Counted from the first letter of the stretch, positions 12,767-41,931 are shown. The stretch: 64,000 nt of DNA from Alphaproteobacteria bacterium (GCA_038131935.1 JAYPQH010000032.1:160001-224000), one strand, 5' to 3'. Notes: generated by a model not told the origin, from the sequence alone. Numbers and translations are program-made.

Positions 12767-12784
12767 TTTTCTCTCCTCTGTTGT

Positions 12785-23323: not shown

Positions 23324-24101
23324 ATGAAGCTGAAAGGATGGAAAAAGACCGTAAATTTGTGTACGCGCTGGCTCGTGGGCTTGATATTTTAAAGGCCTTT
23401 AGCCCCGATGAAGCTGAATTGAGTAATCTTGAGCTTTCAGAAAAGACAGGGTTACCAAAACCCACAGTATCACGTTTCACCTACACACTCACTGAGCTTG
23501 GTTATCTTGTTACAGCACCAAGAACTGGAAAGTTCAGGTTGGGCCCTCTGGTTCTATCATTAGGCTACACAATGCTCGCCTCGGTCGACTTGAGAGAGCG
23601 CGCGAAGCCATTTATGGATGACATTGCGCGTCGTGATCATGTTACTGTTGCCTTGGGAACACGAGATAAACTTAGCGCTGTATATATCGAGGTTTCCAAA
23701 GGTAGCCAAATCATCACAATTAGCAGAAATGTTGGCTCTAGGCTTCCCATACATAATACCGCGATGGGAAAGCCCTTATTGCTGCATTACCTGCAACAGA
23801 GTATCAATATCTCTTGAAAGCCCTCGCAGAAAAATTTCCAGAAGATATAAGAGCAATAGAAAAATCTTTGGAAATGGCTCGCGAAGACATTGAAAAATAC
23901 GGATTTTGCACATCCATTGGAGAATGGATTAAAGATGTGAATGCTGTAGCTTCACCACTATTTTCAGCAGACCGCAACGAGATTTACGCCATCAATGTAG
24001 GAGGACCTTCATTCATGATAAATCAAGAGCGACTATGCGAAGAATTGGGACCAAGATTGGTAGATGTTGTAAAAGCCCTCACGCCAAGCGCATTGACATA
24101 G
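23320..24101 (+). CDS. IclR family transcriptional regulator (split near 23770)
   Basis: ALARGLDIL, TGLPKPTVSRFTYTL HTH, GSRLPIHNTAMGK, GEW...VNAVA. Confidence 0.9.
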
Positions 24102-24147: not shown

Positions 24148-25749
24148 TTAACCCAAAACCAAGGCCATGCCATCTTTGCGCGGATCAGACCCAGCCACAT
24201 AGCCGCCTCCAGGTAAGGTTTGGATAAGCTGAGCTCCACCGAATCCAAGCCCCTCTGACCATGGAATTATTTTGATATCATGACCTGCATCACGCAAAGA
24301 TTGAACGAGGCTTTGCGGGAATGCCTCCTCAACTTCTACCTGATTTCCCTCCATAAATCTCCATCGAGGCGCATCAATTGCTGTCTGAACATCCTGCCCA
24401 AGGATTTGTGTTCGCACCAACATTTGCAGATGTCCTTGTGCTTGCATAAAAGCACCCATCACACCTGTGGCCATTCTGAGTCCGTTTGCTCCTGTAATAA
24501 ACCCCGGAATAATCGTATGGAACGGCCTTTTCATGGGGGCAACTTCGTTTGGATGTCCTTTTTCCATGGTAAAATTCGCACCGCGATTTTGGAAATGTAT
24601 CCCCGTTCCAGGAACAGATACACCCGATCCCATTCCCATATAATTTGATTGAATAAAAGACACCATCATACCATCTTCGTCAGCAGCACAGAGATACACA
24701 GTACCACCGCCACCAGGCTTACCAGCCCCAAACACTTGAGCACGATTTGGATCAATCAAAGCTGCGCGTTCTGCTCCATACGAAGGATCAAGAAGCCGCG
24801 CTGGGTCGAACGCCATGTAATCAGGGTCTGCTACATGTGCAAGCAAATCAGAGAATGCTAACTTCATGGCCTCTATTTGAAGATGCGTTCCGCGCCAATC
24901 TTCACCGTCCCATTTGTCAAACGAGGTATGCTTTAGAATGTTTAGCGCGATGAGCGCAGCAATACCCTGTCCATTGGGCGGTATTTCATAAAGTGTGGTC
25001 TCACCAAAATCCATCTGCAATAGATCAACCCAATCTGCCTGATGCGCCTCTAGATCCGCAGCCGTCATACTCCCACCGGTTTCTTTCGCAAACGCAATGA
25101 TTTTGGCAGCCAATTCACCTGTGTAGAAATCCTCTCCTTGCGTCTTTGCGATGGCCCTGAAGCTGTCTGCCATACCGCGGTTTATAAAACGCTGTCCCAC
25201 ATTTGGTACATGTCCGTTGTCTGTGAACATTTCAATGAAACCTGGTTGATCACGGAGGATTTCATGATCACGAGACCATAGTTTTTGCACAACAGGTGTC
25301 ACAATGAACCCCCGCTCCGCTTGCGAAATAGCATCTTCAAACAATGACTCAAACGGTAGCTTTCCAAATTTTTGCCACAATGCTGACCATCCACGTACAA
25401 CACCTGGTACTGTGACCGCGTCCCAACCTCGCTTTGGAATACCACCTTTGGCATCAAAAAACTCCCTTGTCCACGCGGCGGGTGCTCGGCCAGAGGAATT
25501 CAAACCATGGACCTTCTCACCATCATGTACAATCGCAAAAGCATCCGAACCAAGACCACAGCCCGTAGGCTCAACCAGTGTTAACATAGCGGCCGTGGCT
25601 ATGGCCGCGTCAGCTGCAGACCCACCCTTTTCAAGGATACGCAATCCTGCCTGCGTTGCGAGGTATTGTGACGTTGCCACCGCTGCACGCCCAAATACGG
25701 GCGTTCGCCTTGTCATGGTCACTGGGTAATAAGGGTAGTTTATACTCAT
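24148..25749 (-). CDS. Cytoplasmic gamma-glutamyltransferase family Ntn hydrolase
   Basis: VEPTGCGLGSD, PPNGQG, GGTVYL autoproteolysis Thr, KRPFHTIIP, SDPRKDG; no signal peptide. Confidence 0.88.
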   Translation of the reverse strand: MSINYPYYPVTMTRRTPVFGRAAVATSQYLATQAGLRILEKGGSAADAAIATAAMLTLVEPTGCGLGSDAFAIVHDGEKVHGLNSSGRAPAAWTREFFDAKGGIPKRGWDAVTVPGVVRGWSALWQKFGKLPFESLFEDAISQAERGFIVTPVVQKLWSRDHEILRDQPGFIEMFTDNGHVPNVGQRFINRGMADSFRAIAKTQGEDFYTGELAAKIIAFAKETGGSMTAADLEAHQADWVDLLQMDFGETTLYEIPPNGQGIAALIALNILKHTSFDKWDGEDWRGTHLQIEAMKLAFSDLLAHVADPDYMAFDPARLLDPSYGAERAALIDPNRAQVFGAGKPGGGGTVYLCAADEDGMMVSFIQSNYMGMGSGVSVPGTGIHFQNRGANFTMEKGHPNEVAPMKRPFHTIIPGFITGANGLRMATGVMGAFMQAQGHLQMLVRTQILGQDVQTAIDAPRWRFMEGNQVEVEEAFPQSLVQSLRDAGHDIKIIPWSEGLGFGGAQLIQTLPGGGYVAGSDPRKDGMALVLG

Positions 25750-26458
25750 GTTCCGTGGCTCTCTCTTGTTGTTCGAATTTCAATATGCTTCACCATATTG
25801 GGTATTTCTACCAATCGGTCCACATAAATTCCTGGTAAATGAATATGGTCAGGATCAAGACTTCCAGCAGGAACAATTTTTTCGACCTCAGCAATACATA
25901 CACGACCACATGACGCAACATCTGGGTTAAAATTCCTTGATGTCTTTCGAAAAATAAGGTTCCCCGCGGTATCTGCAATTGATGCCCGAATAACAGAAAC
26001 ATCAACAGTTATCGCCTCTTCCAAAATATATTCACGGCCATCAAAAACTCTTGTTTCCTTACCTTCAGCGACCTTGGTACCTACCCCTGTGGGGGTATAA
26101 AATGCGGGAATTCCTGCACCGCCAGCACGCATTTTTTCAGCTAATGTTCCTTGTGGGGTAAAATCACAAGCAATCTCGCCCGCAAAATACTGCCGTACGA
26201 ACTCAGGATGATTACCGGGATAAGAGGCAATTGCTTTTTGATATGGCCTGCTTCAAGAATTAACCCTAAAGCTTTTCCAACAGCACCGGCATTGTTCGCC
26301 ACAACCGTAATATCTTTGGTGCCCTTCTCATGTATCGCAACGAGCAGATATTCTGGTGTGCCAACCAGACCAAATCCACCAACAGCCATACTCATTCCAT
26401 CAAAAACAACATCCTCTATCGCTGATGCCGGACTTTCATAAATTTTTGCCAAAACCAT
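25746..26458 (-). CDS. 3-oxoacid CoA-transferase subunit A (split near 26238)
   Basis: VGGFGLVGTPE, NNAG, PQGTLAE, RAGGAGIPAFYTPTG, HLPGIYVDR. Confidence 0.88.
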
Positions 26459-26500: not shown

Positions 26501-27304
26501 TTAACTTCCAACCCGCAGAGGATTTGTCAAACCACGCAAGCAGGCAATAAGACTTAACGAAGTAATCTTGCCAGTCCCTGGGTTTTCTTCTGTAGGTATA
26601 TTTTCAATACTCATTTGCAACTTGGCAGAATCTGAATCAACAACGATATGGTGGGTGTTGCGCGTCAGAGCAGGATCAGCCCAAATCTCTAGCTTTGTGA
26701 GATCCGGCCCAATACCAGCCAATCCTAATGCTGCAGCCACATTCACGTTCGCTGGAAACGCCGCGGCTCCTTCTCGTGCGGTCCCTTTGAAAACGCACGT
26801 CGCCTCCTCCAGCATATCAACATCTATCCCTATTTCACGAAGGTAAGGGGCTTTGCGTAGAGACATTGGTGGCTTACGGGTAATCATCGTTACCTCATAA
26901 ATCTTTCCTTCTGCCGCCGCACGAACAGCATCAAAACCAAGCAACGCGCCGGTTGCCAGAATAATTTGCCCCGCTGATTCATGAGCCATGGCAACTATTT
27001 CAGGGTGTGCAAGAATACCAGCTCCACTCACAGTCACCAATTTCTTGCCATTCTCTAGGGTAGGAATTGCGATGGAGGGGAATGCAGCAGTGGGTGCACA
27101 ATCTACCACAACATCCGCATGATCAGCTATCTGGTTGTTATCAACGCATGGAACATCGAGACCATGCTTTAACAAAAACTCTTGTGCTTTCTCCTTCTGA
27201 CCTGAGCTCACAGCAACAAGTTCAAAGTCCTTGAGATGACCCTCGACAAAAGAAGACACAACTTTACGACCAATTGTACCAATACCTGCAATAGCGATTT
27301 TCAT
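26501..27304 (-). CDS. nadX: L-aspartate dehydrogenase family protein
   Basis: GIGTIG, TGALLGFD, TRKPP, FPANVNVAA, NTH, ENPGTG. Confidence 0.85.
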   Translation of the reverse strand: MKIAIAGIGTIGRKVVSSFVEGHLKDFELVAVSSGQKEKAQEFLLKHGLDVPCVDNNQIADHADVVVDCAPTAAFPSIAIPTLENGKKLVTVSGAGILAHPEIVAMAHESAGQIILATGALLGFDAVRAAAEGKIYEVTMITRKPPMSLRKAPYLREIGIDVDMLEEATCVFKGTAREGAAAFPANVNVAAALGLAGIGPDLTKLEIWADPALTRNTHHIVVDSDSAKLQMSIENIPTEENPGTGKITSLSLIACLRGLTNPLRVGS

Positions 27305-27495
27305 CCAAATACACTCCTCGTGACAACGCTTCCTGATCCACGGTCAAAATCGCGCTGACAGACAATAAAAGTAGGGCGGGTCGATGTGATCTGTTGACAT
27401 CATGCTTCGCATCATGAACGCTTCTTGCAGGCTTGACAACCAATTGCTTAAGTCTTTCGACTAATATAACGCGAAATCGAAGTTTGGGGAATCAA

Positions 27496-28475
27496 ATGAT
27501 GAAGAAACGAAATATTTTAGGTCTTGCTGCAGCTTTGTCTATGGGTGTGGCTGGTATATCCTACGCTGGGGGCCATAGTGCGGACATTCCATGTTCCACA
27601 GCGAAGTTAATCGTGCCTTGGGGTGCAGGTGGCGGAACGGATGTAATTTTCCGTCAAATTGTCGATGTTGCGAATAATCAAGGGATGAAACCGCAACTTC
27701 AGGTGGTTAATGTTGGAGGGCAAGGTGGTAACAAGGGTGCCAAGCAAGCCGTCGCAGCAAAACCTGATGGTTGCACCTTGTTCGCGATGCACCAAAGCGC
27801 CATCACAAGTTACCTAACAGGACGTGTGAATTTCACTTGGGATGGGTTTGAACCTATTGCATTGATGACAAATACTCCATCAATCTTTGGGGCTGCAGGA
27901 AATACATCATACAGCAATCTCAATGAGTTGATTGCAGAGATCAAGAAAAACCCAGGAACAGTAACTGCTGGTGCAACCTTGGGCTCTACGTCGCAAGTTG
28001 TTTTTCTTCTTACAGAGGACGCTACAGGCGGAAAATTCAAGTATGTGTCGTACGACGGAACCAAACAACGTATGACTGCTCTTCTGGCAGGCAACATTCA
28101 AGTTGGGGAAATCAATCTTGCAGCTGCAAAGAAATATATTGAAACAGGTAAACTCAAAGCGTTGGGCGTCATGTCAAACAAGCGTTTATCTGGGCTAGAC
28201 GATATCCCAACGGCTAAGGAGCAAGGGCTTGATGTTGTTTTTGGTGTGGAACGCGGTATCGTTGCGCCCAAGGGAACATCTGAGGCAATCGTTAAGCATT
28301 ATGCTGCAGCATTTCAAAAAGCCGCTTCTGACGAAAAGTTAATTGCAAGCATGCTCTCAAAGGGACATTCCTCGAATATGTAGGACCCTCAGAATATACT
28401 GCAAAGTTGGATGAAACCACCAAAAAGTGGACCACCATTTTCGATGGCATGGGTTTGCTAAAGGTGAAAAACTAA
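27496..28475 (+). CDS. tctC: Tripartite tricarboxylate transporter substrate-binding protein, TctC/Bug (split near 28365)
   Basis: IVPWGAGGGTD, PDGCTL, IPTAKEQG, APKGT; restoring one A extends the frame to TAA at 28475. Confidence 0.87.
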
Positions 28476-28528
28476 ACAAGACTATAAAAAATTACCTTGG
28501 AACAGAGGTGACATAAATTTTATGATAG

Positions 28529-28556
28529 ATCAGGGGCTTTTTAGCCCCTGATTTTT
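28529..28556 (+). terminator. Terminator-like hairpin after tctC
   Basis: ATCAGGGGCT-TTTT-AGCCCCTGAT followed by a T run. Confidence 0.7.
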
Positions 28557-28593
28557 CAGTTCTCTTTTTAACTTGACGTGGGATGCGTGATCC

Positions 28594-29097
28594 ATGAATC
28601 GTGATTTTTGGACAAGTTTGTTTTTGATATTTTTATCATTCGTACTGTATCGGGAAAGTACGTTCATTGAAGATGTTGATTATGGGAGTATGAAAGCTGA
28701 TGTCTGGCCAACCTTCTTGGTCATGCTGCTGGTTGTTTTATCAATATCTATGCTTGTGAAATCCCTAATGGAATACCGACAGGCAACGCAAAGCTCCACT
28801 CAAGACAATGAGAATGCTGAACAAACAGATTCCGTCACTGGTTGGACTTGGTTGATCAACCCAATGATAGTTTTTGTTCTATTCTTTCTATTCCTCATCA
28901 CCTTAGATTACCTTGGCATGCTCATCGGAGGTATCTTTTTTACGTTCATTACGATGACATTATTGGGGCAAATATCATGGCGGACTGTACCTATCTATTT
29001 TGTAATTTCAGTGATTAGCATCTCAGGGATGTGGGCAATTTTCACCTTTGGCTTACGCGTTATGTTGCCAGAGGGCGTACTTTTCACTGTTTGGTGA
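28594..29097 (+). CDS. tctB: Tripartite tricarboxylate transporter small permease
   Basis: Small multi-TM protein ending LRVMLPEG, between tctC and tctA. Confidence 0.82.
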   Translation: MNRDFWTSLFLIFLSFVLYRESTFIEDVDYGSMKADVWPTFLVMLLVVLSISMLVKSLMEYRQATQSSTQDNENAEQTDSVTGWTWLINPMIVFVLFFLFLITLDYLGMLIGGIFFTFITMTLLGQISWRTVPIYFVISVISISGMWAIFTFGLRVMLPEGVLFTVW

Positions 29098-29103
29098 GGA
29101 ATA

Positions 29104-30753
29104 ATGATGACTGATGCAATTATCTTGGCTGCACAAAGTATTTTTCTTGATCCCGTCACGTTAGGGCTGATTGCTTTAGGGACTTTTAGCGGACTGATAG
29201 CAGGATCGATTCCCGGTTTTACGATCGCAATGGGTGTTATCCTCGTACTTCCATTTACCTTTGGGCTAAGCCCAATCCAAGGCGTTGCCACCATGATTGG
29301 CGTTTTCGTAGGAGGGCTTTCCGGAGGTTTGTTGTCCGGCATGCTGATTGGAATTCCTGGCACACCTTCTTCAGTTGCCACGACGTTTGATGGTTTTCCA
29401 ATGGTCCGTTCAGGACGAGCAGGTTTTGCTCTTGCCTTGGGCCTATGGTCATCTTTTTTCGGAGGAATCATCTCTGCTATTTTGTTGGTGACCCTAGCCC
29501 CTCAGCTTGCTTTTCTTGGTTTGGAATTTGGGCCTTGGGACTATTTTATGCTCATCGTCTTCGCCCTCACTATTGCTGTAAGTTTATCAAGTCAAAATAT
29601 GCTCAAAGGCCTCACAGCAGGAATCTTGGGATTGATCGCCGCAACAGTTGGAGAAGATGAAATCAATGGTGTTGCACGGTTTTCTTTTGACACCGAGGCA
29701 CTCAGGCAAGGATTTGCTTTTTTACCGGTGCTGATTGGCCTGTTTGCCTTCTCTCAATTGCTGTCTGATGTAGAGGATAGAACCAAGGCAAAATCATCCA
29801 TGATGAATGCTGAAGGGGAATCTGTACGTATCGAGCATCTCCGCGCTATTCGAGAAATATTTTCTCGTTGGATTAATCTTGTTAGGTCTAGCCTGATAGG
29901 CGTGTTTGTTGGAATTCTACCAGCGGCTGGAGGTTCTATTTCCAATATTTTGGCCTATGATCAGGCACAGAAAGCATCAAAAGTCCCTGAACAATTTGGA
30001 AAAGGCGTATCAGACGGCGTTATAGCACCTGAAGCCGCCAACAATGCCACCGCGGGTGGGGCACTTATGATGATGATGGCCCTAGGTATCCCAGGTGATA
30101 TCGTGACCGCGGTCATGATCGGCGCTTTGATGATACATGACATTGTCCCGGGTCCAACCTTTATTCAAGACAAGCCTGTGTTGGCTTATGGTGTTTTTAT
30201 AGCTTTTTTCTTTGCTAACTTTGTTATGGTCTTCATGATGTCTGGGGCATTGCGTGTATTTTTGAAGGTAGCGAGGGTTCGGCTAAATATTCTTGTTGCT
30301 GTCATATTGGCTTATTGTGCCTTTGGTGTTTTTGCCTTGCACAATATTGGCTTTGACCTCTGGGTGCTCTTTGGGTTCGGCATCGTTGGTTATATCATGA
30401 AAAAGCTTGGTTTCCCTCTAGCCCCGATGATTTTGGGTGTTGTGTTGGGGAAACTCGCTGAGATCAATCTCTCAAGAGCCTTGGCGATTTCTGATGATAT
30501 CATGCTATTTGTTTCTCGCCCTTGGTCATTATTTTTCTTCCTGCTTGCCATCGTGTCGGTTATTTTTCCATTTTTCCAGCAAGCACGTGACGAAAGCCTT
30601 TTGAAACGATTTTTTGTACCCTTGAGCTTGGTTGTTCTTGCTTTACCATTATTCGTAATGGACTCTTATACACGTATGATTGTTGGTATCTTGATGATTG
30701 TTTTTGCCGCATGGCAGCTTCGCAAGAAATCTTTCGTCCCTCAAAATGGTTAA
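29104..30753 (+). CDS. tctA: Tripartite tricarboxylate transporter large permease
   Basis: IPGTPSSVATTFDGFPM, PEAANNA, LGIPGD, APMILGVVLG. Confidence 0.92.
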   Translation: MMTDAIILAAQSIFLDPVTLGLIALGTFSGLIAGSIPGFTIAMGVILVLPFTFGLSPIQGVATMIGVFVGGLSGGLLSGMLIGIPGTPSSVATTFDGFPMVRSGRAGFALALGLWSSFFGGIISAILLVTLAPQLAFLGLEFGPWDYFMLIVFALTIAVSLSSQNMLKGLTAGILGLIAATVGEDEINGVARFSFDTEALRQGFAFLPVLIGLFAFSQLLSDVEDRTKAKSSMMNAEGESVRIEHLRAIREIFSRWINLVRSSLIGVFVGILPAAGGSISNILAYDQAQKASKVPEQFGKGVSDGVIAPEAANNATAGGALMMMMALGIPGDIVTAVMIGALMIHDIVPGPTFIQDKPVLAYGVFIAFFFANFVMVFMMSGALRVFLKVARVRLNILVAVILAYCAFGVFALHNIGFDLWVLFGFGIVGYIMKKLGFPLAPMILGVVLGKLAEINLSRALAISDDIMLFVSRPWSLFFFLLAIVSVIFPFFQQARDESLLKRFFVPLSLVVLALPLFVMDSYTRMIVGILMIVFAAWQLRKKSFVPQNG

Positions 30754-30833
30754 GGATCAAACACCCTAAGCAAATGTCATGACGCCCTTTTTGCAAAAAA
30801 TGGTTCCTTAAATGAACGATAATGAGACATATT

Positions 30834-33286
30834 ATGAACAAAAACCTTGACTTTTTGGGTGCTGGTGACCCTGGAGCGCTGGATTTTCTGCTTCAACATC
30901 TCAATGGCAATACATCTCAAAAAGATTGGGATATATGGTTCGCACAATTCAGCTGGCTATATGCGGATATCAATCCACTCAAAAACCTAAACCGTTGCCA
31001 GAATTTGTTTCATCTGATCCCGATGCGAAGGGACATATAGAGCATTTTTGTGGTACAATTGGATGGGAAGTAGGCCATATTTTAAATGAAGAGAAACGCC
31101 ATTGGCTGCTTGACGCTGCCAAAACACAAAAGCAGTCATCTGTATTTACTGTAGCCGAAGCATTTGAACTTTTGTGTAAAGCAGAAGCATTTGAGGCGAT
31201 TACGAAAAAAAGGTTACCAACCATCAAGACCTTCTCTATGGAAGGAGGCGAAGGATTTCTCGTTGCCGTTGAATCGGTGATTAAGCATGCCCAAGAAATC
31301 AATATTGTTCTTGGGGGTATGCATCGCGGCAGAATGACCCAAAATGCATTATTATTTGGGGCCAGCCCAGAAGATATGATTGGCCAAATTCAAGGCAAAC
31401 CAGACCTGCCTTTTGACCTTGGAGCCTCCTCAGATGTGCCTTATCATTTGGGGGTTGCTGGCAAGCGCTCCGATGACAAGGTTATTTGGCTTTCCCCCCA
31501 CCCTTCGCATTTGTCCGTTGTTGCACCTGTTGCTATGGGTTATGCGCGCGGCCAAGAAGAACAATGCTTAAGCATTATGTTGCATACAGATGCTGCGTTT
31601 GCAGGCCAAGGAGTTAACATGGAGTTGCTCCAATTATCAGGCCTAGACGGTTATCACGTTGGTGGAAGTATCCATTTGATTTTAAATAATCAAATTGGCT
31701 TTACAACATTAGAAGAACAAGCTCGAACAGCAAGAAATAGCAGTGACATAGCTCGTATGCTCGACATACCTATATTACATGTTCATGGGGATGATATTGT
31801 AAGTCTCATAAAAGCCGGTTTTATTGCGGTAGAATACAGACGACAATTTGCCACGGATGTTGTCATTGAAGTACTGTGCACAAGGCGGCGCGGTCATAAC
31901 GAGATTGATGACCCAAGCTATACAGCGCCTATTATGCAACAGCAAATTGATGCACGCCCTCCCATCACAACCATCACCCAGCGAAAATATCAACTGACAC
32001 AACCCGACATTTCTGATTTTAACCAGCGGATTAATGATGCATTCAATTTGGATAATCTTTCAACAGATAACCAAATTCCAGATGCCCCTGGCCTGGTAAA
32101 TGATGTTGAAGCGGTATTATGCAAACCAGTTAAAACTGGCATCATGTTAGACAAACTCATTCAAATTGGGGAACAACTAACGACTTGGCCTCATGAATTC
32201 ACCATTCACCCACGGGTGGCTCAATTGCTCACCAAACGAGCTGAAGCGTTGCGTTCACATGGCAAAATAGATTGGGGGTTTGCCGAAACATTGGCTTTGG
32301 GTGGTTTGCTTGATGAAGGCTATTCCGTAAGGCTTTCCGGCCAAGATACTGTACGTGGTGCCTTTTCCCAGCGTCATTTGCATATCTATGATCAGAATGT
32401 CGGAACCTCTTTCGAACCTTTGTCCCAGCTTGGTGACGCAGAAATATTTAATTCACCTTTGATTGAGAATGCTGTGCTTGGGTTTGAATATGGTCTTAGT
32501 GTGTCGGCCCCTAACAAATTGGTCATTTGGGAGGCACAATTCGGTGATTTTCTGAATGTTTGCCAAGCCATGTTTGATCAATTTGTAACAGGCGGTGAAG
32601 ATCGTTGGTTGCAACAATCTCGGCTTGTTATGCTTCTTCCTTATGGTTTTGACGGAGGTGGCCCAGACCATTCAACCGGGCATATTGAAAGGGTGTTATC
32701 AAGAGCAGCGCGAGGTAATGTTCGTGTTGCCAATCCAACCACACCAGCCAATTATTTTCACCTTCTTCGTCGTCAAATGCATGACCATCTGGCCAAACCA
32801 TTGGTTGTTTTTTCCCCTAAGCTTCTCCTAAGACATCCTCTGTGCCTCTCAGATGTTGATCACTTCACCAAAGGTCATTTTGAAACTTTCAAGACTTGGA
32901 ATATTGAAAATGCACAACAGATTGCATTTTGTCATGGTAAAATGGCCGTTCGCATGCTTGAGGAGTGCAACAAGCGTGATTGTCATGATTGGGGTATCGT
33001 TTCACTCGAACAACTTTATCCCTTGGACAGAAATAATTTATTGAAATTAAAAGAGCTTCTTTCAACTAAGAAATTATTCTTTGTTGAAGAAGAACCCGCC
33101 AACCTAGGGGCTTTTACATATCTCGATAGAAAGTTGGAATCTATATTCCAACAAACCTTTCATCGTATTGGTCGGCCCGAAGCTGCATCACCCGCTGTTG
33201 GGTGGAAAAGTTGGCATGACAAAGAAGAAAACTTACTTTGGACACAAATATTTGGGAACAATAATCATGACAAAATTGCCAGATGA
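30834..33286 (+). CDS. Atypical, shortened 2-oxoglutarate dehydrogenase E1-like ThDP enzyme (split near 30985)
   Basis: FSMEG, HRGR, PSHL, DAAFAGQG, NNQIGFTT, GHNE, RLSGQD, WEAQFGDF, YFHLLRRQ; ~820 aa. Confidence 0.85.
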
Positions 33287-33920
33287 GATCATTGAACGGC
33301 TGAAGAAGCTTGCCACCCCAACCATTGCGAACGCAATTGATGAAATTGGCCAAGGCGGTATCATGAAAGGTATTCACGCTGTAGGCGCAGGTTTTAAATG
33401 TGCGGGACGCGCCGTAACCGTTCGTCAAGTGACAGGGCCATTAGGAAGTTTCAAAGTTGAGGACTTTCGGGTTGGTCATATGATCGATGCAGCAGGTCCT
33501 GGTGATATTATTGTGGTCGCCAATGGTGGTGCGGAGGTGTCCACATTTGGGGGCATGGCAGCCTATGCTGCAAAACATCGCGGTATTGAGGGACTGGTTG
33601 TCGATGGGGGTGTAAGAGACCGTGAAGAAATTATCGAGTTTGGTTTTGATGTTTTTTCTGTCCATGTCACCCCTACTCCTGGAAAAACGCGTTTGAAAGT
33701 TGAGCAAATCAATGAAACGATTGTAGCTTGTGGGGTAACGGTTAATCCAGGTGACGCAATACTCGCTGATGGTAGTGGTGTTGCGGTTCTACCTCGAGAT
33801 CATGCTGAGCACATCATCACCTTAGCGGAAGGGTATGCACGCGATGATGAAAAGGCTTTGGAAGAATTGGCAAATGGCCTAAGCTTTACTGAGGCCTTAA
33901 AGAAATTTGCCAAAATTTAA
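33267..33920 (+). CDS. RraA-like / HMG aldolase-oxaloacetate decarboxylase family protein
   Basis: GRAVTV, FGGMAA, GLVVDGGVRD, VNPGDAILADGSGV. Confidence 0.87.
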   Translation: MTKLPDEIIERLKKLATPTIANAIDEIGQGGIMKGIHAVGAGFKCAGRAVTVRQVTGPLGSFKVEDFRVGHMIDAAGPGDIIVVANGGAEVSTFGGMAAYAAKHRGIEGLVVDGGVRDREEIIEFGFDVFSVHVTPTPGKTRLKVEQINETIVACGVTVNPGDAILADGSGVAVLPRDHAEHIITLAEGYARDDEKALEELANGLSFTEALKKFAKI

Positions 33921-34024
33921 GGTGCTTCATGAGTTCAAGGTTCACATGTCATAGACTTTGGTCTATGTGATGGAGCTGTTTATTGGGATAACCCCCAATG
34001 AATCATCTAAAAAGGGAGAGTATA

Positions 34025-35068
34025 ATGATCAGAACAGTTACCAAAGCCCTCGTTATTGTTGGGGTGGCAAGTTCACTCAGCATGGGCACGGCTTTGGCTG
34101 GCGGCCATGGCGCCACAGTCGAAGGACCAAAAGTTTTTTGGAAACTTTCAACATGGGGAAACCCACGTGCATTTACCAAAGGTATTGAACACCTATCCGA
34201 GCAGTTGGCCAAAAAAACAGGCGGCAACTTTACCTTAAAGATTTTTTACGGTGGACAGCTGTCAAAGAACAAGGAAAACCTTGACGGTTTGAAGGCAAAT
34301 GCCTTCGAAATGGCAACATTTTGTAACTTTTATCACCCCGGCAAAAACCCGGCTTTGATGGTTATGACCATGCCATTTTTACCTGTGAAAGATTTTGATT
34401 CAGCTGCACGTGTGCGCCGTGGACTTTATGAGCATCCCATCGTCAAAGAAGAAATGGCGAAATGGAATGCGATGTATTACGAGTCAAGTCATCTTCCACA
34501 ATATGAATTTGTTGGTAAAGGTGATGCCCCTATGACACTTGAGGGTTTCAAGGGTATGCGCGTTCGTGCCGGTGGTGGCGTTGGTGTCGCCATGGAAGTT
34601 TTGGGCGCGACACGCCAGTCCATGCCAGCACCTGAAGTCTATACCGCAATGCAGCGTGGTACCGTTGACGCCGCATCATTCCCCTTCTCTTATGCTCATG
34701 GTGCATACAAAACTTTTGAAATTGGCGACTGGTTCACGTCTAATCTGTCTCCTGGCACCTCAGATTGCCCCATCGTTGTAAACAAAACAGCTTTTGATAA
34801 TCTTCCAAAACAGTATCAAGACCTCATGATGGGTATGCGTGATGAAGTGATGGAAGTTTATCGTAACGCATACAAAGCAGCGGATGAAAAATATCTGCCA
34901 ATGTTCCGTGCTAAATTAAAAGAAATCACCTACTCAGATGCAGAGCTTGCTCGTTTCCAGGAACTGGGTGGTCGTCCTGTTTGGGACAAGTGGGTTGCAG
35001 ACAACAAGGATAAGTTTGATGCTCAAGCGATCCTTGACCTAACACTCAAACTTGCTAAGGGCGAATAA
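34025..35068 (+). CDS. dctP: TRAP transporter solute-binding subunit
   Basis: Signal peptide, KGMRVR, PEVYTAMQRGTVDA, NKTAFDNLP; AGGGAG RBS. Confidence 0.88.
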   Translation: MIRTVTKALVIVGVASSLSMGTALAGGHGATVEGPKVFWKLSTWGNPRAFTKGIEHLSEQLAKKTGGNFTLKIFYGGQLSKNKENLDGLKANAFEMATFCNFYHPGKNPALMVMTMPFLPVKDFDSAARVRRGLYEHPIVKEEMAKWNAMYYESSHLPQYEFVGKGDAPMTLEGFKGMRVRAGGGVGVAMEVLGATRQSMPAPEVYTAMQRGTVDAASFPFSYAHGAYKTFEIGDWFTSNLSPGTSDCPIVVNKTAFDNLPKQYQDLMMGMRDEVMEVYRNAYKAADEKYLPMFRAKLKEITYSDAELARFQELGGRPVWDKWVADNKDKFDAQAILDLTLKLAKGE

Positions 35069-35095
35069 ACGCTCCCTTTGGTTGTTAAAATAAGA

Positions 35096-35124
35096 TTGGG
35101 GTCTGATGGTCTATTGGACCCCAA
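35096..35124. terminator. Intercistronic hairpin after dctP
   Basis: TTGGGGTC...GACCCCAA inverted repeat. Confidence 0.55.
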
Positions 35125-35203
35125 AAAATTTGCCAAAAAATTTGATTGAATAGCTGGCAAAAAAATCAAATGTTACAGGGCTGTTTCCAAGAGGAGATCG
35201 AAT

Positions 35204-35830
35204 ATGGCCGGCACATCAGAGCATACGGAAGTGAACACTCCGGTTGGTTTTTTCCCTACCATTCTAGCGAAACTAGAAGATATGCTTAATATAGTTGCAG
35301 CCGTGACAATCTTTGCGGTCATGCTACTCACCACCGCCGGTATAGTTTCACGTATTCTTGGCGCCCCCATCCCAGCTTATTTGGAGATCTCCGAACTAGC
35401 GATCGCCATTTTTGCTTTTCTTGGTGTAGCCTATGCACAAAGACTAGGTACGCATATTCGGCTCGATATGATCGTGAAAAATGCACCAGGTTCACTCCGC
35501 TGGTTCATTGAATTGCTTGGAAGTGTTGTCAGCTTGTTGCTGGTCTTGGTCTTGATACGTTATTCTTGGGACTTTTTCTTAAACGCCTATCATATAGGTG
35601 ACAGTACATATGACTATGAGATCCCGACTTGGCCAGCGAAGCTTTTGGTACCCTTCGCATTCAGCGTTTGGGCCTTGCGCATCTTGGTAGAAATTTTTGG
35701 TTATTTTGAGCTCATCATTTCTCCAAACAATCGTCCTAGAAACGTTCCCCTCACATTGTCACCTGAGGAAGAAGCCCGACTAGAGATTGAACAATCTTCC
35801 ACATCAACCGATGGTTCTCGTAACCAATAG
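35204..35830 (+). CDS. dctQ: TRAP transporter small permease
   Basis: Four TM helices, HIRLDM motif. Confidence 0.87.
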   Translation: MAGTSEHTEVNTPVGFFPTILAKLEDMLNIVAAVTIFAVMLLTTAGIVSRILGAPIPAYLEISELAIAIFAFLGVAYAQRLGTHIRLDMIVKNAPGSLRWFIELLGSVVSLLLVLVLIRYSWDFFLNAYHIGDSTYDYEIPTWPAKLLVPFAFSVWALRILVEIFGYFELIISPNNRPRNVPLTLSPEEEARLEIEQSSTSTDGSRNQ

Positions 35831-35863
35831 GCGTCACACCAACCACCCATTAGAAGGATCACC

Positions 35864-37276
35864 ATGTTGGATATCAGTGCATTGATCGCAGGCCAACCAG
35901 AGGCCATTTTTGGTATTGGATATGCAGACACCGCGACGGTGGGGATGTACTGTATGATCTTACTCCTCATCCTCGTCGCAATGGGCGTGCGCGTTGTATT
36001 CGCAGCAGGAATTACAGGTCTCGTTGGCTTGGTAGAATTGATTGGCTGGAGTGGAGCTGCAGCGACCGTTGGCTCGATTCCCTACTCCAAATCGGTATCG
36101 TTTGTATTGGGGCTCTTGCCCATGTTCATTCTCATTGGATACCTCGCGTTTCACGCTGGTATGACGCGGCAACTTTTCCATGCCTCTAAAGTATGGTTGG
36201 GTTGGGTGCCAGGAGGTATGGCCGTCGCAACTGTCTTTGCTGCTGCTGGTTTTGCAGCTGTTTCTGGTGCATCAGTCGCCACGGCAGCCGTTTTTGCGCG
36301 CGTGGCCATCCCAGAGATGTTGGAAGCAGGATACAAAAAGACTTTAGCAGCGGGTGTTGTCGCAGCAGGCGGCACTCTTGCAACCCTTATTCCCCCATCT
36401 GCTATTTTGGTCATCTATGCCATCATTGTTGAGGAGTCCGTGGGGGCCCTCCTGATCGCAGGTTTTTTACCCGGTGTCTTCTCCGCCATTATTTATGGAC
36501 TAATTATTATCATCTGGGCCAAATTAAACCCAGATGCAGGTCCTGCTATAACAGGCTTTACCTGGGGAGATCGAATACGTGCTTTACCGGGCTTACTTCC
36601 CATTATGGCGGTTGCTATCATCATTATCACGGCTGTTTATGATGGTTGGGCAACACCAACAGAAGCAGGCGCCTTAGGTGCATTTATTGTACTTATCACA
36701 GCCTTTTTGAATGGCATGAGGTGGCCTGCATTAAAAGCAGCTCTGATGGAAACATCTAAGCTCGTTGTTATGATTTTTTGTTTGATTTGGGGCGTTCTGA
36801 TATTTGGTCGTTTCTTAGGATTTTCAGCTGTGCCAGAGGCCTTTGCCAATTGGATTCTATCGTTAGACCATGATCCTTACGTCATCTTATTTGCGATACT
36901 TATGGGATATGTGATCTTGGGAATGTTCATGGATGCCATTGGCCTACTTTTGCTCACACTGCCTGTTGTTTACCCTGCTGTTATGGCCCTCAATGGCGGT
37001 GAGTATGTTACCGCGGAAGACAGTGCATTTGGCATGACAGGCGCCCAAGCAAGTATCTGGTTCGGGATAATTGTTGTTAAAATGGCGGAAGTTTGTTTGA
37101 TCACCCCCCCCATTGGACTCAATTGTTTTGTGGTGAACGGTGTGAGGCCAGACATACCTCTTACCGATGTATTTAAAGGCATTGCTTTGTTTTTCGTGGC
37201 TGATGTGTTAACAATTATTGGGCTGATATTCTTTCCAGCTATTATCACATACTTACCGGATCAAATGTTTAACTAG
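35864..37276 (+). CDS. dctM: TRAP transporter large permease
   Basis: SGASVA, GGTLATLIPPS, TPTEAG, LITPPIGLN. Confidence 0.92.
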   Translation: MLDISALIAGQPEAIFGIGYADTATVGMYCMILLLILVAMGVRVVFAAGITGLVGLVELIGWSGAAATVGSIPYSKSVSFVLGLLPMFILIGYLAFHAGMTRQLFHASKVWLGWVPGGMAVATVFAAAGFAAVSGASVATAAVFARVAIPEMLEAGYKKTLAAGVVAAGGTLATLIPPSAILVIYAIIVEESVGALLIAGFLPGVFSAIIYGLIIIIWAKLNPDAGPAITGFTWGDRIRALPGLLPIMAVAIIIITAVYDGWATPTEAGALGAFIVLITAFLNGMRWPALKAALMETSKLVVMIFCLIWGVLIFGRFLGFSAVPEAFANWILSLDHDPYVILFAILMGYVILGMFMDAIGLLLLTLPVVYPAVMALNGGEYVTAEDSAFGMTGAQASIWFGIIVVKMAEVCLITPPIGLNCFVVNGVRPDIPLTDVFKGIALFFVADVLTIIGLIFFPAIITYLPDQMFN

Positions 37277-37288: not shown

Positions 37289-38524
37289 TTGCAGCCTCTT
37301 ACAAATTACGCACCGCGTGATATCACGCGGGCGAGCATGGCCATTGTAGCTTTTTGCTTTTTCATGCACATGCTTGCACGCGGTTTGTCTGAGACAATAG
37401 CGGTTTTTCTACTTCCTGTAACCCAAGACATGGGCTGGTCTAGGACCGAATTCAGCTCCATTTATGCAATATTTATGGCAACCCATGGTATTACAGCGCC
37501 CTTTATTGGTGCTATGTTTGATCGTTTCGGGCCCAAATGGATTTATATTCCAGCCATCATTTGCCTCGGACTTGGGTATCAAATTGCCTCACATATGCAA
37601 CATCTTTGGCATGCACAACTTGGGTTAGGGATTTTAATAGGTTTGGCCGTGTCGGGTATGGGTATGGCCGTGGCAACTGGAGTTATAAGCCGATGGTTTG
37701 ATAAAAACCTCACCATTGCAACATCAATTACCTATGCTGGCATGTCCGTTGGCATGATTGCTGTGGCGCCATTATCACAAGAATTAATTGAAACTTTTGG
37801 ATGGCGTGACGCATATTTTTACCTGAGTCTACCACCGCTGATCCTAGCGCCCTTGCTTATTTTGCTGCCTTGGAAACGGATTACTTTTGGTTATAAAAAT
37901 CAAAAGCCTATGACTTCTAAAAGATTTCTTATCCCTGCTTATGTTTTGAAACAACCTACTTTTTGGGGTTTGTTTATTAGCTTTTATGCGACTGCTGTTG
38001 CCATCTGGAACAGTGTTCTGCAAATCGCCGCTTACCTCGTTGAAATTGGCTTTTCACCAATCTTAGCAGCTACTGGTTTTGGGACCATGGGTGCCATGAG
38101 TATGGTCGGGATGCTGTTGGTTGGCTACCTTGCAGACCGATATCAGCGACATTGGGTGATCACCATTAGTTTTTTGATGACCGTTTTAGGCATTATTTGC
38201 ATTTGGCTTCTGCAATTCACACCAACGATAAGTATGATGTTTATCTCTGTCATGATGTTTGGATCTACCATGGGGTCAAGAGGGCCTGTTATATCCGCAT
38301 TGGTGGCAAAATTGTATCCTCAAATGGTTGGGGCAGTTTACGGTATGATTACCATCGCATTTGGACTTGGTGCCGCCACGGGCGGTATGCTTTCAGGCTT
38401 TCTACATGACGTAAGTGGTGGTTATGATGTGGTGTTTGCTGCTTCAATAATCGCATGCCTGATAGGTCTTGCACCTTATTGGATTCTATATACCTTAAAA
38501 TATGGACGTTGGCCTCACAGTTGA
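37289..38524 (+). CDS. MFS transporter
   Basis: About 12 TM segments; GAMFDRFG and GYLADRY motifs. Confidence 0.85.
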   Translation: MQPLTNYAPRDITRASMAIVAFCFFMHMLARGLSETIAVFLLPVTQDMGWSRTEFSSIYAIFMATHGITAPFIGAMFDRFGPKWIYIPAIICLGLGYQIASHMQHLWHAQLGLGILIGLAVSGMGMAVATGVISRWFDKNLTIATSITYAGMSVGMIAVAPLSQELIETFGWRDAYFYLSLPPLILAPLLILLPWKRITFGYKNQKPMTSKRFLIPAYVLKQPTFWGLFISFYATAVAIWNSVLQIAAYLVEIGFSPILAATGFGTMGAMSMVGMLLVGYLADRYQRHWVITISFLMTVLGIICIWLLQFTPTISMMFISVMMFGSTMGSRGPVISALVAKLYPQMVGAVYGMITIAFGLGAATGGMLSGFLHDVSGGYDVVFAASIIACLIGLAPYWILYTLKYGRWPHS

Positions 38525-38535
38525 GGGAGAAAGAT

Positions 38536-39687
38536 ATGGATAACTTTCAAGATATTAAAGATGCCATTCATAAACTGATGGAAGGCTTCGGGGAAGAATA
38601 TTGGATGGCATGCGATCGCGACAGTCGATTTCCTGAAGAATTTCGTGAAGCCATCGTAAAATCGGGTTGGTTGGGTATTGCAGTACCTGAAGCGTATGGT
38701 GGATCAGGCCTTGGCCTTCGTGAAGGTATTGTTATGATGGAAGCTGTGGCAAATTCACCAGGTGCTATGTCTGCAGCCTCAAGCATCCATATGGATATCT
38801 TTGGCCCCAAAAGTATTGTTCATCATGGGTCAGAAACGCAAAAACAAGAATGGTTACCTCAAATTATTTCAGGTACATTACGAACATGCTTTGGTGTGAC
38901 AGAGCCTGATGCTGGTCTTGATACAGGATCCATTACAACCAGTGCCCATCGTGATGGTGATCACTATATTATACGGGGAAGAAAAATTTGGACCTCAACA
39001 GCCCAACAAGCTGACCGTGTTATTCTCCTTGCACGTACAACGCCCAAGGAAGACTGCAAAAAATCTACAGATGGCCTGAGTCTATTTTTTGCGCCCCTTG
39101 ACCGGCGTTACGTTACGATTCAAGAAATTCCCAAAATGGGGCGCCATGCGGTGAATTCTAACATGGTGTTCTATGATGAATTACCTGTCCCAGCGTCCTG
39201 TCTTATTGGTGAGGAAGGACAAGGTTTTCGTATCCTGATTGATAGCTTGAACCCAGAAAGATGCCTTGTGGCTGCTGAAGCTATTGGGATTGGACGACAG
39301 GCTCTAAAAAGGGCTTGCATGTATGCCCGTGAGCGAGAAGTCTTTGGTCGTCCTATTGGCACAAACCAATCTATTCAACATCCCCTTGCAGAGAGTTACG
39401 CTGAACTTGAAGCGGCATGGCTGATGACGCAGAAGGCAGCAGACTTATATGATCAAGGGTTATCATGCGGGATAGAGGCCAACAGTGCTAAATATCTAGC
39501 TGGCGAAGCAAGCTTTAAAGCCTGTGAACGCGCCATTTTAACCCATGGCGGTATGGGGTATGCGAAAGAATACCATGTCGAGCGATTGATGAGGGAGGTC
39601 TGGATAAACCGTATTGCTCCCGTCTCTCAACAAATGGTTCTCAACTTCATCGCAGAACGTGCTTTGGGACTACCTCGTAGTTATTAA
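38536..39687 (+). CDS. Acyl-CoA dehydrogenase
   Basis: FGVTEPDAG, LNPER, REVFGRPIG, THGGMGY, IAPVSQQM. Confidence 0.9.
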   Translation: MDNFQDIKDAIHKLMEGFGEEYWMACDRDSRFPEEFREAIVKSGWLGIAVPEAYGGSGLGLREGIVMMEAVANSPGAMSAASSIHMDIFGPKSIVHHGSETQKQEWLPQIISGTLRTCFGVTEPDAGLDTGSITTSAHRDGDHYIIRGRKIWTSTAQQADRVILLARTTPKEDCKKSTDGLSLFFAPLDRRYVTIQEIPKMGRHAVNSNMVFYDELPVPASCLIGEEGQGFRILIDSLNPERCLVAAEAIGIGRQALKRACMYAREREVFGRPIGTNQSIQHPLAESYAELEAAWLMTQKAADLYDQGLSCGIEANSAKYLAGEASFKACERAILTHGGMGYAKEYHVERLMREVWINRIAPVSQQMVLNFIAERALGLPRSY

Positions 39688-39704: not shown

Positions 39705-40697
39705 TTAGGGTCTAACAATAATTGTTCCGATCGGACGGCCCTCTTCTTGCCTAAGATGAGCACTAGCTATTTGCTCCAAGGTAAATTCGCTATCGATGCG
39801 TCGAGGAAAAAGACCTTGTTCTAAAGCCTTTGCAACGAGGCTTGCACAAGCGAGTTTCTCTTCTTCAGTGATTTCAAATATGGCAACACCATGAAGAGAA
39901 ATATTACGGTACATGTAAGGCGCCCAAGGCAGTTGAGGCTCGGGATTGCTCGCTGATCCATAACTCGCAATTTTCCCGTTCTGGGCTATAAATGACCATG
40001 CATCTGACAAATGCGCACCCAAATCTACGTCCACCATCAAACGTGCCCCGGCTCCATTCGTGAGATCATGAACCGTTGTTTTGATCTGTTGAACATCGGG
40101 GGAAATGACCCAATTTGCGCCGGCCTTTTTTGCATCCTCTGCCCGCCGATCATCGCGGGCTGTAGCCAGTACCTGCGCACCCAACATTTTGGCAAGGACG
40201 ATTGCTGCATTACCAACAGCACCTGCACCACCTGTCACGATAACTAGGTCATCTGGTGAAATTTCTCCCAAACGTACCGCACGCGCAGCCGTCATGGCCG
40301 GGACCCCTAAACTTGCACCATGAGCAAAATCATCTTTATCAGCAAGGGGCATAGCCCTGGTTAAGGGGACAACGGTATACTCACTTGCAGCACCATCCCA
40401 ACGCTTGTGGGCACATTCCCAAGCCCAAACTCTTTTACCTATATGATGGGATGGAACATCAATACCAACATCCACAATCACACCGGCAGCATCAAAACCT
40501 GGGATCACCCTTGGATAGTTAAGAGCACCACGAAAGCCAGAGCGCCTTTTACAGTCTGTCGGATTCACCCCATGCGCCTCTACTTTGATGAGTACTTCGT
40601 TATGAGCTGGTTGAGGTATTTCCAAGCTACCGACTTGCAAGACATCCTTCGCAGCACCGGTTTGATCATAAAATGCAGCTCTCATTGTATTTTGCAT
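39705..40697 (-). CDS. NADPH:quinone reductase family (MDR) oxidoreductase
   Basis: GVNPTD, LGVPAMTA, TGGAGAVG. Confidence 0.85.
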   Translation of the reverse strand: MQNTMRAAFYDQTGAAKDVLQVGSLEIPQPAHNEVLIKVEAHGVNPTDCKRRSGFRGALNYPRVIPGFDAAGVIVDVGIDVPSHHIGKRVWAWECAHKRWDGAASEYTVVPLTRAMPLADKDDFAHGASLGVPAMTAARAVRLGEISPDDLVIVTGGAGAVGNAAIVLAKMLGAQVLATARDDRRAEDAKKAGANWVISPDVQQIKTTVHDLTNGAGARLMVDVDLGAHLSDAWSFIAQNGKIASYGSASNPEPQLPWAPYMYRNISLHGVAIFEITEEEKLACASLVAKALEQGLFPRRIDSEFTLEQIASAHLRQEEGRPIGTIIVRP

Positions 40698-40733: not shown

Positions 40734-41931
40734 TCAATTTCCGAATGATTTCTGCTGATCAAGAACTTCTTGCAATATGTTTGTTGGAACTTCAAATTGC
40801 TCCAAAACCTCTTTTGTATGCTCACCAAGACAAGGAGGCTGCAAACGCATGGGCAAATTTTTTCCATCCCAGCGACCAGGAGGTGATGCGTACATCACCT
40901 CACCAGCATGAGGATGAATATGCTTTTGGAAAAAATTTACCTCACGCAGATGTTGATCATCCAATAGATCTTCAAGAGTGTTCACTGCACCACAGGCAAT
41001 TTCCGCTGACTGTAACAATGCTAACCATTCTTGAGTAGTTCGTGTTGGCATAACCTCTTCAACCAAAGCATATACATCATTAATGTTTTCCGATCGGGCC
41101 AACATCGTTGCAAATTTAGGATCATTAATGAGTTCAGGTCGATCGATAATTTGAAAGAAACGGGCCCATTGACGATCATGGTAAGCCAACATGCACAAAT
41201 GGCCATCTTTGGTAGGGAATGCTCTACGGAATCTCGATACTGCGCGTTCATAGCCCATACGTCCCTCTGGTGGCTGGAAACGATGACCAGCCAATTGTTC
41301 CACCATGGTAAAAGCAACCATGGTTTCATACATCGGCACCTCTACATGTCCACCAACACCGGTACGTAATTTTTGAATCAAAGCAGATTGAAGTGCAGAT
41401 ACGGCCATCAATGCTGATGTTTTGTCTGCAATAATGGAGGGTATCAATGAGGGTGTACCATCTCGTGCGGTAAAGCTTCCCGCAAGACCTGACTGACCTT
41501 GGATGACATCGTCATAGGCAGGCATATCTGCCCATGGTCCGTTCTGGCCATAACCTACAAGTTCACCATATATGATGCCCGGATTTAGCGTTTTCACATA
41601 TTCATAACCAAATCCTAGCGCCTTGATTTTTGCCGCACGCATATTGTGCACAAAAAAATCAGCCCGACGGCAAAGATGGCGCAAAGCGTCCTTCCCAGTT
41701 TCAGATTTCAAATCTAAGCAAATAGACCTTTTGTTACGATTTAACCCCATGAATAATGCGGACAAGACCACCTTCCTTTGTGGGGGTAATATGACGGACA
41801 TCATCCCCACGCAAAGGTTCTATCTTGATAACATCAGCCCCTAAATCTCCCAAAATTTGTGTGGTGTATGGTCCATAGACAACAGCGGTTAAGTCAAGAA
41901 CCATCAAATCTTTTAAAGGAAGTTGTGCCAT
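40734..41931 (-). CDS. Family III (CaiB/BaiF) CoA-transferase (split near 41775)
   Basis: LDLT.VVYGPY, DLGADVIKIE, NRNKRS, PAYDDVIQ, PCLGEHT. Confidence 0.87.

Follow-up and report, generated by a model that had tools for sequence, protein, structure and literature searches.

We analyzed a 64,000-nucleotide stretch of alphaproteobacterial DNA (GCA_038131935.1 JAYPQH010000032.1:160001-224000; the whole stretch is referred to as the window hereafter), which carries on its + strand, at 30834–33286, a gene for a short thiamine diphosphate (ThDP) enzyme of the 2-oxoglutarate dehydrogenase (OGDH) E1 family. This E1 belongs to a distinct, deep and uncharacterised clade of the family, apart from SucA and Kgd; the clade is rare, and its E1 is encoded in addition to the housekeeping sucAB. 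The true gene is intact, with an 817-aa product, and the gene junctions indicate that it is translationally coupled to the gene of an RraA-like class II pyruvate aldolase/decarboxylase (33267–33920, + strand). The OGDH-E1 family is a known kind, and the new element is the short E1 of this clade (the HTD clade hereafter, after one of its motifs) paired with the RraA-like aldolase. The E1s of 2-oxoacid dehydrogenases are usually read as housekeeping enzymes, and the databases label the clade accordingly: public records name its proteins "2-oxoglutarate dehydrogenase E1 component" or "thiamine pyrophosphate-dependent enzyme". No published account of the clade or of the E1–RraA pair was returned by full-text literature searches, which did not cover subscription journals and supplements. 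A rare, conserved paralogue with a remodelled pocket rim, a lost docking motif and translational coupling to a pyruvate aldolase suggests that the dicarboxylate metabolism of marine bacteria includes a step not yet assigned.

Several lines of evidence separate the E1 from SucA. One is the domain scores: the domain set of SucA is present (E1_dh, Transket_pyr and OxoGdeHyase_C), and the scores fall below the cut-offs of both SucA equivalogs (NF006914, 750.8 against 764; TIGR00239, 614.6 against 770). Another is the presence of a canonical sucA on another contig of the same genome, which scores 1383 bits with NF006914 and is followed by a sucB with lipoyl, E3-binding and catalytic domains; the first-pass annotation had proposed to look for such a sucAB elsewhere in the genome, and had set the window gene apart from the housekeeping SucA, as the data confirm. 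Another concerns the motifs. The window E1 reads HTDAAFAGQG, SDVPYH, HPSHLS, LLPYGFDGGGPDHS and DGGGPDH, and the counterparts in the own canonical SucA are HGDAAFAGQG, GDVKYH, NPSHLE, LPHGYEGQGPEH and EGQGPEH. The motif alterations that had been pointed out earlier are indeed present, and most of them are traits of the whole clade. Among the best 120 database matches, which are 41–51% identical to the E1 and of which 80 are 780–845 aa long, HTD is found in 115 and HPSHL[SQ] in 119, and [GAT]GPDH follows LPHG in all of the 117 in which the motif is readable.

The last line of evidence is a FastTree tree of 85 rows, composed of 38 canonical SucA/Kgd rows, 46 clade rows and the row L090. The 38 canonical rows, which span many phyla, with actinobacterial Kgd-type rows and the own SucA among them, lie on one side of a branch with a support of 100, and the 46 clade rows lie together on the other side (support 100), while L090, a single row on a long branch, stands beside the canonical side. 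The placement of P0001, a database protein 99% identical to the window E1, beside L088 within the clade joins two long branches and is unsure. A tree with SucA, Kgd and DHTKD1 had been suggested in the first-pass annotation; of these, the tree covers SucA and Kgd, and the split from their rows was obtained.

The clade E1 accompanies a canonical SucA wherever this was checked: in all four genomes (the window's own, L004, L005 and L006), and in each of the three genomes with a clade member (G237, G317 and G181) among 400 sampled other genomes of the class. This set is an even sample of the class, in which kin are not independent (G317 and G181 share one genus), the unpublished G242 enters only the denominator, and absence refers to the sampled genomes only. 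A profile scan of genome contigs, in which one pattern was common with canonical SucA, gave 3 clade loci among the 80 loci listed; a metagenome scan with a clade-specific sub-alignment gave 13 clade loci by motif among the 80 listed, or 16 together with the genome loci. The cultured carriers named in the records are Albimonas pacifica (L006), Oceanibacterium hippocampi (L005) and Acuticoccus spp.

The intactness of the E1 gene requires explanation, since the window itself contains it in two frames: a part with WDIWFAQFSWLYADINPLK in 30816–31040 (approximately 50 N-terminal residues), and the remainder in the −1 frame at 30869–33286. The frame switches at an AAAAA run (30981–30985), which the first-pass annotation had read across as one open frame; its estimate of approximately 820 aa is correct after the frameshift is repaired (817 aa), and incorrect for the window as it stands. 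P0001 (817 aa) passes through the switch in a single frame ("...ADINPLKKPKPLPEFV..."). Contigs from four studies (three DNA runs and one run of an RNA library) were compared with the window over 27400–34000. All four runs have an extra A behind 30980, which restores the frame of the E1; an extra A behind 28358, which restores the C-terminus of the solute-binding protein TctC, found in another frame of the window; and C for T at 32642, which changes TAT (32642–32644) to CAT and the Tyr of LLPYGF to His. One run (X1) is otherwise nearly identical to the window, with 0–4 differences per piece, yet lacks these lesions. His occupies the LLPHG site in all of the 117 relatives with a readable motif among the 120 examined. 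Because the four runs and the relatives differ from the window at these sites, the frameshifts of the E1 and tctC and the Tyr codon are private to this assembly, and all three are assembly errors. Of the motif changes, which had been expected to vanish after polishing if they were errors, HTD, HPSHL[SQ] and others persist in the runs and relatives, and the change from His to Tyr disappears.

A pseudogene, that is, an E1 decaying in this organism with a real frameshift and a real His-to-Tyr change, would account for both lesions and would suit the several other genes in the window that look split. We regard this explanation as very improbable and reject it, as the lesions, along with the tctC frameshift, are missing from all four runs, X1 included; moreover, both indels consist of one A too few in a run of A, and the density of split genes within 64 kb favours assembly error. 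The further split genes are those of an acyl-CoA dehydrogenase (8884–9986), a ThDP enzyme (18300–20019), a CoA-transferase subunit (25746–26458) and a glutamate-synthase domain protein (50491–52088), two of which have homopolymers at the junction (T6 at 26132 and C6 at 51514). The genes of an IclR protein (23320–23814), a family III CoA-transferase (40734–41810) and another acyl-CoA dehydrogenase (41934–42914) look truncated. Judged from their sequences, single-base assembly errors rather than decay are the likeliest cause of these defects too. The E1 case demonstrates that such errors can imitate the loss of a catalytic residue.

We then consider the active site. According to an excerpt of PMC7340257, the residues that set DHTKD1 apart from OGDH and accommodate the longer 2-oxoadipate are Tyr190, Tyr370, Ser263 and Asp707; the equivalents in M. 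smegmatis KGD, as given in an excerpt of PMC8146983, are Phe506, Phe682, Tyr578 and Asp1019. F134, F290, Y204 and D612 of P0001 align with the four KGD positions listed in this excerpt (adding 359 to the KGD chain index gives the native numbering; this offset is inferred, and is consistent at all four residues), and they are invariant in the family alignment. A DHTKD1-like 2-oxoadipate pocket is ruled out, as three of the four discriminating residues differ (F134, F290 and Y204). Since the four residues match KGD, the pocket is predicted to be KGD/OGDH-like and not DHTKD1-like. H164, H205 and H613 are also invariant (22 of 22), and each is matched by a His of the KGD chain; we take the matched residues to be those that bind the distal carboxylate in KGD (His539, His579 and His1020 in the M. 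smegmatis enzyme, and, for the first two, His260 and His298 in E. coli). Beside these pocket and cofactor residues, the clade has changed: K to P or S before Tyr-His, N to H and E to S or Q around the wedge Leu, G to T before the Mg-binding Asp, and EGQG to DGGG. The kept pocket residues, together with the adjacent clade changes, therefore argue for a dicarboxylic 2-oxoacid of 2-oxoglutarate length as the probable substrate, held in altered surroundings.

The same pocket would also suit a redundant or condition-specific second SucA for 2-oxoglutarate, the aldolase and the transporters nearby being mechanistically unlinked to it. The positions that discriminate DHTKD1 are all of the 2-oxoglutarate type, the His triad is kept, and the names in the public records say the same. 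We nevertheless consider this rather improbable: the changes from GDVKYH to SDVPYH, NPSHLE to HPSHLS, HGD to HTD and EGQG to DGGG are clade-wide and lie beside pocket or cofactor residues, the coupling to the aldolase is tight and recurrent, the clade E1 never adjoins sucB, and it is rare (3 of the 400 genomes).

The E1's N-terminal region differs from that of SucA in length and content. The collapsed N-terminus noticed in the first-pass annotation is evident in a profile–profile alignment with canonical SucA, whose first aligned columns are 27 (clade) and 103 (canonical): approximately 100 canonical residues are shortened to approximately 26, and a further deletion of approximately 21 residues follows. 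The docking motif PF16078 gave no match at E ≤ 1 in P0001 or P0005, against 8e-13 for the own SucA. A hidden Markov model (HMM) of the canonical N-terminus matched 8 of the 120 clade proteins at E ≤ 1e-3, all of them 860–897-aa forms, and none of the approximately 820-aa forms; 600 shuffled sequences gave no match at E ≤ 0.01. Because the HMM finds the longer forms and none of the approximately 820-aa forms, the docking motif has faded within the clade. In the 860–897-aa members P0085–P0091, P0103, P0104 and P0117, the canonical motif is still detectable, with a graded loss towards the approximately 820-aa forms. At the extreme N-terminus, 18 of the 22 short forms keep LGAGDPGAL, which has a weak likeness to the canonical motif (hhalign P 8e-4, probability 24%).

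The loss of this motif does not by itself separate an E1 from an E2. Human DHTKD1 has a short N-terminus, lacks the docking motifs of OGDH and has no dedicated E2; it nevertheless binds the E2 of the OGDH complex and makes use of it, as described in the excerpt of PMC7340257, where a loop His is assigned to acyl transfer to E2. This His is found as GHNE in 120 of 120 relatives; it was located there, on the basis of the same excerpt, because in either protein it lies 65 residues from the Gly-Tyr/Phe motif. A fused acyltransferase, or PF00198 domain, is not present in the 817-aa P0001. By analogy with DHTKD1, this precedent and the invariant loop His speak for E2 use, and we place the use of E2 through SucB/Lpd a little ahead of an E2-free action.

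The RraA-like gene begins with an ATG at 33267 and overlaps the E1 stop codon (33284–33286) by 20 nt, as had been noted earlier. Its product (217 aa; PF03737, 110 bits) scores below all NCBIfam equivalog cut-offs: those of the aldolases (TIGR02798, LigK, 86.1 against 304.5; NF006731, 98.5 against 179) and those of RraA, the regulator of RNase E (NF006875, 47.3 against 136; TIGR02998, 24 against 241). The top solved relatives are the uncharacterised 3K4I, which is the best, and 3NOJ, an aldolase for HMG (4-hydroxy-4-methyl-2-oxoglutarate) and CHA (4-carboxy-4-hydroxy-2-oxoadipate). R117, D118 and D193 (with D194) align to Arg-123, Asp-124 and Glu-199 of 3NOJ, of which Arg-123 is essential and catalytic and the other two are metal ligands according to an excerpt of PMC5065237. 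R117, D118 and D194 show no variation over 21 rows and D193 varies hardly at all; Gly-101 and Gly-144 of 3NOJ are also kept, while the protein deviates at Arg-40, Asn-71, His-75, Thr-145 and Arg-195. It probably retains the aldolase chemistry with an altered specificity. Relatives are 57–72% identical over the 119 listed; the protein is far better conserved than the E1, and it is common in marine metagenomes.

The pairing of the two genes recurs. An RraA-like gene adjoins the E1 in the window, L005, L006, L085, G237 and L089, with junctions of a 20-nt overlap, ATGA, ATGA, GTGA, a 3-nt gap and a 159-nt gap, respectively. In the approximately 820-aa subgroup, it follows the E1 with an overlap or at ≤3 nt in 5 of the 8 assessable loci, as compared with an RraA-like neighbour in 1 of 5 loci of the longer forms and in none of the 145 canonical-motif loci among the loci listed. 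It is not beside the E1 in L004, L086 (the same sequence as L087), L088 and most of the 860–897-aa members, and the contig of L084 stops approximately 215 nt past the E1. Eight E1 matches and eight RraA matches list longest contigs of identical size, three of them of 5.5–7.3 kb. The conservation of the whole E1-rraA-tct arrangement, which the first-pass annotation had proposed to examine, is partial: the adjacency of E1 and RraA recurs, and tctCBA is not conserved, TctC being near the E1 in only one other locus (L112).

Other neighbours of the clade E1 also recur. The most recurrent is a family III CoA-transferase, found within approximately 5 kb of the E1 in the window, L006, L084, L090, L098, L112, G237, G317 and G181; homologues 42–43% identical abut the E1 in G317 and G181. 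An acyl-CoA dehydrogenase lies within approximately 5 kb in the window, L084 (44%), L085 (68%), L090 and G237; a major facilitator superfamily (MFS) transporter is a neighbour in the window, L084, L085, L089, L086 and L092/L093; and a GlcD-like FAD oxidase is one in L004, L006 and G317. The tripartite ATP-independent periplasmic (TRAP) transport system of the window (dctP/Q/M) is found in L085 (68/58/80%) and in G317 and G181 (53/38–40/64–65%). No E2 or E3 gene was found in any annotated clade locus. The other neighbourhoods are heterogeneous, with ABC systems of the sulfonate and phosphonate types, F420 genes, formate-tetrahydrofolate ligase and insertion sequence (IS) elements. For example, the divergent short E1 of L088 (720–3083; 5577–8573) lies amid F420 genes (CofH/CofG-like radical SAM, CofC, CofD, F420 ligase and F420-dependent oxidoreductase), and an E1 of the 860–897-aa form in L098 (2314–7699) lies downstream of genes for a CoA-transferase III, a formyltransferase and a formate-tetrahydrofolate ligase; the window also has a formyltransferase-like gene, at 45577–46422. 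In L086, a TARA contig, the short E1, which is without an RraA-like neighbour, lies between IS240-type DDE transposase genes (4974–5627 and 12675–13328), and it may be a mobilised copy.

The explanation that we prefer as a whole, tentatively and at somewhat less than even chances, is that an intact accessory E1 and the aldolase act on one 2-oxo-dicarboxylate of 2-oxoglutarate length, that the acyl group passes to SucB/Lpd, and that the resulting CoA ester is processed further. 4-Substituted 2-oxoglutarates are what class II RraA-like aldolases form from pyruvate and a carbonyl partner, or cleave. For this reason, the simplest link would be that the E1 pocket takes such a compound, and the simplest candidate substrate would be a 4-substituted 2-oxoglutarate of the 4-hydroxy-2-oxoglutarate, HMG or CHA type. 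Import of the substrate or a precursor would be the task of the flanking TRAP, MFS and tripartite tricarboxylate (TTT) transporters. The E1 would decarboxylate the 2-oxoacid on ThDP and, as DHTKD1 does, transfer the acyl group onto the lipoyl arm of the housekeeping SucB/Lpd, and a hydroxy-dicarboxyl-CoA of the malyl-, citramalyl- or citryl-CoA type would be handled by the family III CoA-transferase and the acyl-CoA dehydrogenase. A CoA-ester product fits the CoA-transferase neighbours.

Several observations weigh against this explanation. Some of them concern the E2: PF16078 is missing from the short forms searched, the HMM of the canonical N-terminus recovers only the longer forms, and the likeness of LGAGDPGAL to the canonical motif is weak. 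Others concern the neighbourhood, namely the clade loci in which the RraA-like gene is not beside the E1 and the heterogeneity of the other neighbours. The rest concern the chemistry: a malyl-, citramalyl- or citryl-CoA scheme leaves the acyl-CoA dehydrogenase without a function, a malate synthase is already encoded in the genome, and the acceptance of 4-hydroxy-2-oxoglutarate by OGDH complexes is general background for which we found no literature source.

An E1 working without E2 is the alternative inferred in the first-pass annotation. As a non-oxidative decarboxylase or carboligase resembling Kgd or 2-hydroxy-3-oxoadipate synthase, it would give an aldehyde or acyloin that is made or consumed by the co-translated aldolase. 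The docking motif is lost specifically in the approximately 820-aa subgroup, where the adjacency to RraA is also concentrated; the annotated loci have neither an E2 nor an E3 gene, and a gene resembling Zn-dependent alcohol dehydrogenases lies nearby in the window. This explanation is possible, but we consider it unlikely, as the acyl-transfer His of the loop is invariant, the DHTKD1 of the excerpt demonstrates that an orphan E1 with a short N-terminus can still use an E2, LGAGDPGAL is conserved at the extreme N-terminus with a weak likeness to the canonical motif, and the recurrent CoA-transferase and acyl-CoA dehydrogenase neighbours suit CoA-ester products more than aldehydes.

A bolder variant is that the approximately 820-aa E1, having dropped the docking motif, took the aldolase as a dedicated partner in an undescribed two-step route from glyoxylate or glycolate in marine Alphaproteobacteria. 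The aldolase would join pyruvate and glyoxylate (or another small carbonyl) to an acid of the 4-hydroxy-2-oxoglutarate type, the GlcD-like oxidases of L004, L006 and G317 supplying the glyoxylate from glycolate, and the E1 would decarboxylate this acid to malyl-CoA or malate semialdehyde, or to citramalyl or citryl analogues. If true, the route would add a new mode of glyoxylate or glycolate assimilation. We hold it to be improbable, more so than a second SucA. The need for such a route is unsupported, since the genome has a malate synthase, four GlcD-like genes and six HpcH/CitE-like genes. The malate synthase gene, of the G type, is at G000:C32:134766-135491, on the window's contig and approximately 25 kb upstream of the window.

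The gene order around the pair is as follows. On the + strand, tctC, tctB, tctA, the E1-like gene, the RraA-like gene, dctP, dctQ and dctM are followed by the genes of the MFS transporter and the acyl-CoA dehydrogenase; open reading frame (ORF) and domain searches bear out the order of the first eight, on one strand and without sucB or lpd, as the first-pass annotation had described it. Among the ORFs of ≥100 aa in the 64 kb of the window, the searches detected neither an E2 (PF00198) nor an Lpd-type gene. The TTT system comprises the solute-binding protein tctC (27496–28475; PF03401, 118.8 bits over profile positions 1–240 of 274; frame broken near 28358), tctB (28594–29097; PF07331, 53.9 bits) and tctA (29104–30753; PF01970, 458 bits), and the TRAP system comprises the solute-binding protein dctP (33998–35068; PF03480), dctQ (35204–35830; PF04290) and dctM (35864–37276; PF06808). 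The MFS transporter (37289–38524; PF07690) resembles lactate and oxalate–formate antiporters (NF049980, 133 bits; TIGR00890, 91 bits; both below the cut-off). The acyl-CoA dehydrogenase (38455–39687) has the N, M and C domains of its family, and its top solved relatives are generic, glutaryl-CoA dehydrogenase included. On the − strand, 3′ of it, the gene resembling Zn-dependent alcohol dehydrogenases and quinone oxidoreductases (39705–40697; PF00107 and PF08240) is followed by the family III CoA-transferase gene (40734–41810; PF02515, 281 bits, with the profile entered from position 50), which is possibly N-truncated by another assembly error; its top PDB relatives are formyl-CoA transferase and human SUGCT.

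Upstream of tctC, the − strand carries an aspartate-dehydrogenase-like gene, the split CoA-transferase subunit gene and a gamma-glutamyltranspeptidase gene. The first of these (26501–27304) is divergent from tctC and just upstream of it, and, with 316 bits, it exceeds the cut-off of its NCBIfam equivalog (253 bits); its product could supply oxaloacetate from aspartate. The G+C content is uniform over the region (0.43–0.46). Consensus scans for promoters and terminators were at the level of chance (31 against 24.2±5.3, and 15 against 13.2±3.4) and give no operon boundaries. A strong G+C-rich hairpin with a T-run, absent from the list of the consensus scan, lies in the gap between tctC and tctB (28531–28560), which is suggestive of an attenuating terminator behind the gene of the binding protein. 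RNA run X15 contains partial contigs of tctC-tctA, the E1 and rraA-dctP, whose presence is no proof of transcription. Further downstream (58244–63763, + strand) are three large ORFs; in two of them, RTX calcium-binding repeats are the sole family match.

Finally, the pair can be compared with known systems. E. coli SucA (2JGD, 466 bits) has three domains in common with the E1, which keeps the ThDP motif D...NN and the His triad and has F134, Y204 and F290 as in 2-oxoglutarate enzymes. Unlike SucA, the E1 is approximately 110–170 residues shorter, lacks PF16078, scores below the cut-offs, is not beside sucB or lpd, and forms a separate clade with HTD, SDVPYH, HPSHLS and DGGGPDH. For the aldolase, the closest characterised proteins are the HMG/CHA aldolase of the LigK/ProA type (P. 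putida 3NOJ) and the RraA-like aldolases and oxaloacetate decarboxylases, with which it has the PF03737 fold family in common; Glu-199 of 3NOJ is Asp here, the score with 3NOJ is only 70.5 bits, and no aromatic-cleavage genes are near the window aldolase. Kgd/OdhA (2XTA, 8P5S) gives the top PDB score of the E1 (486 bits) and has identical residues at the four pocket positions. Kgd decarboxylates, and it carboligates with glyoxylate. The E1 differs from Kgd/OdhA in lacking a fused acyltransferase, and the Streptomyces, Nanopelagicales and Ancrocorticia rows join the canonical clade. The remaining system is DHTKD1 (6SY1, 6U3J), whose score (451 bits) is similar and no closer than those of Kgd and SucA; its Tyr190/Tyr370/Ser263 signature, taken from the excerpt, is missing in the E1. 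DHTKD1 is nevertheless, like the E1, an orphan paralogue with a short N-terminus, and it borrows the E2 and E3 of OGDH (excerpt of PMC7340257). Near the E1 lie genes of a SUGCT-like CoA-transferase and an acyl-CoA dehydrogenase, and the clade may, by analogy, represent the DHTKD1 principle in bacteria, whereby several E1s share a single E2/E3 core. These neighbours recall the DHTKD1–SUGCT–GCDH trio.

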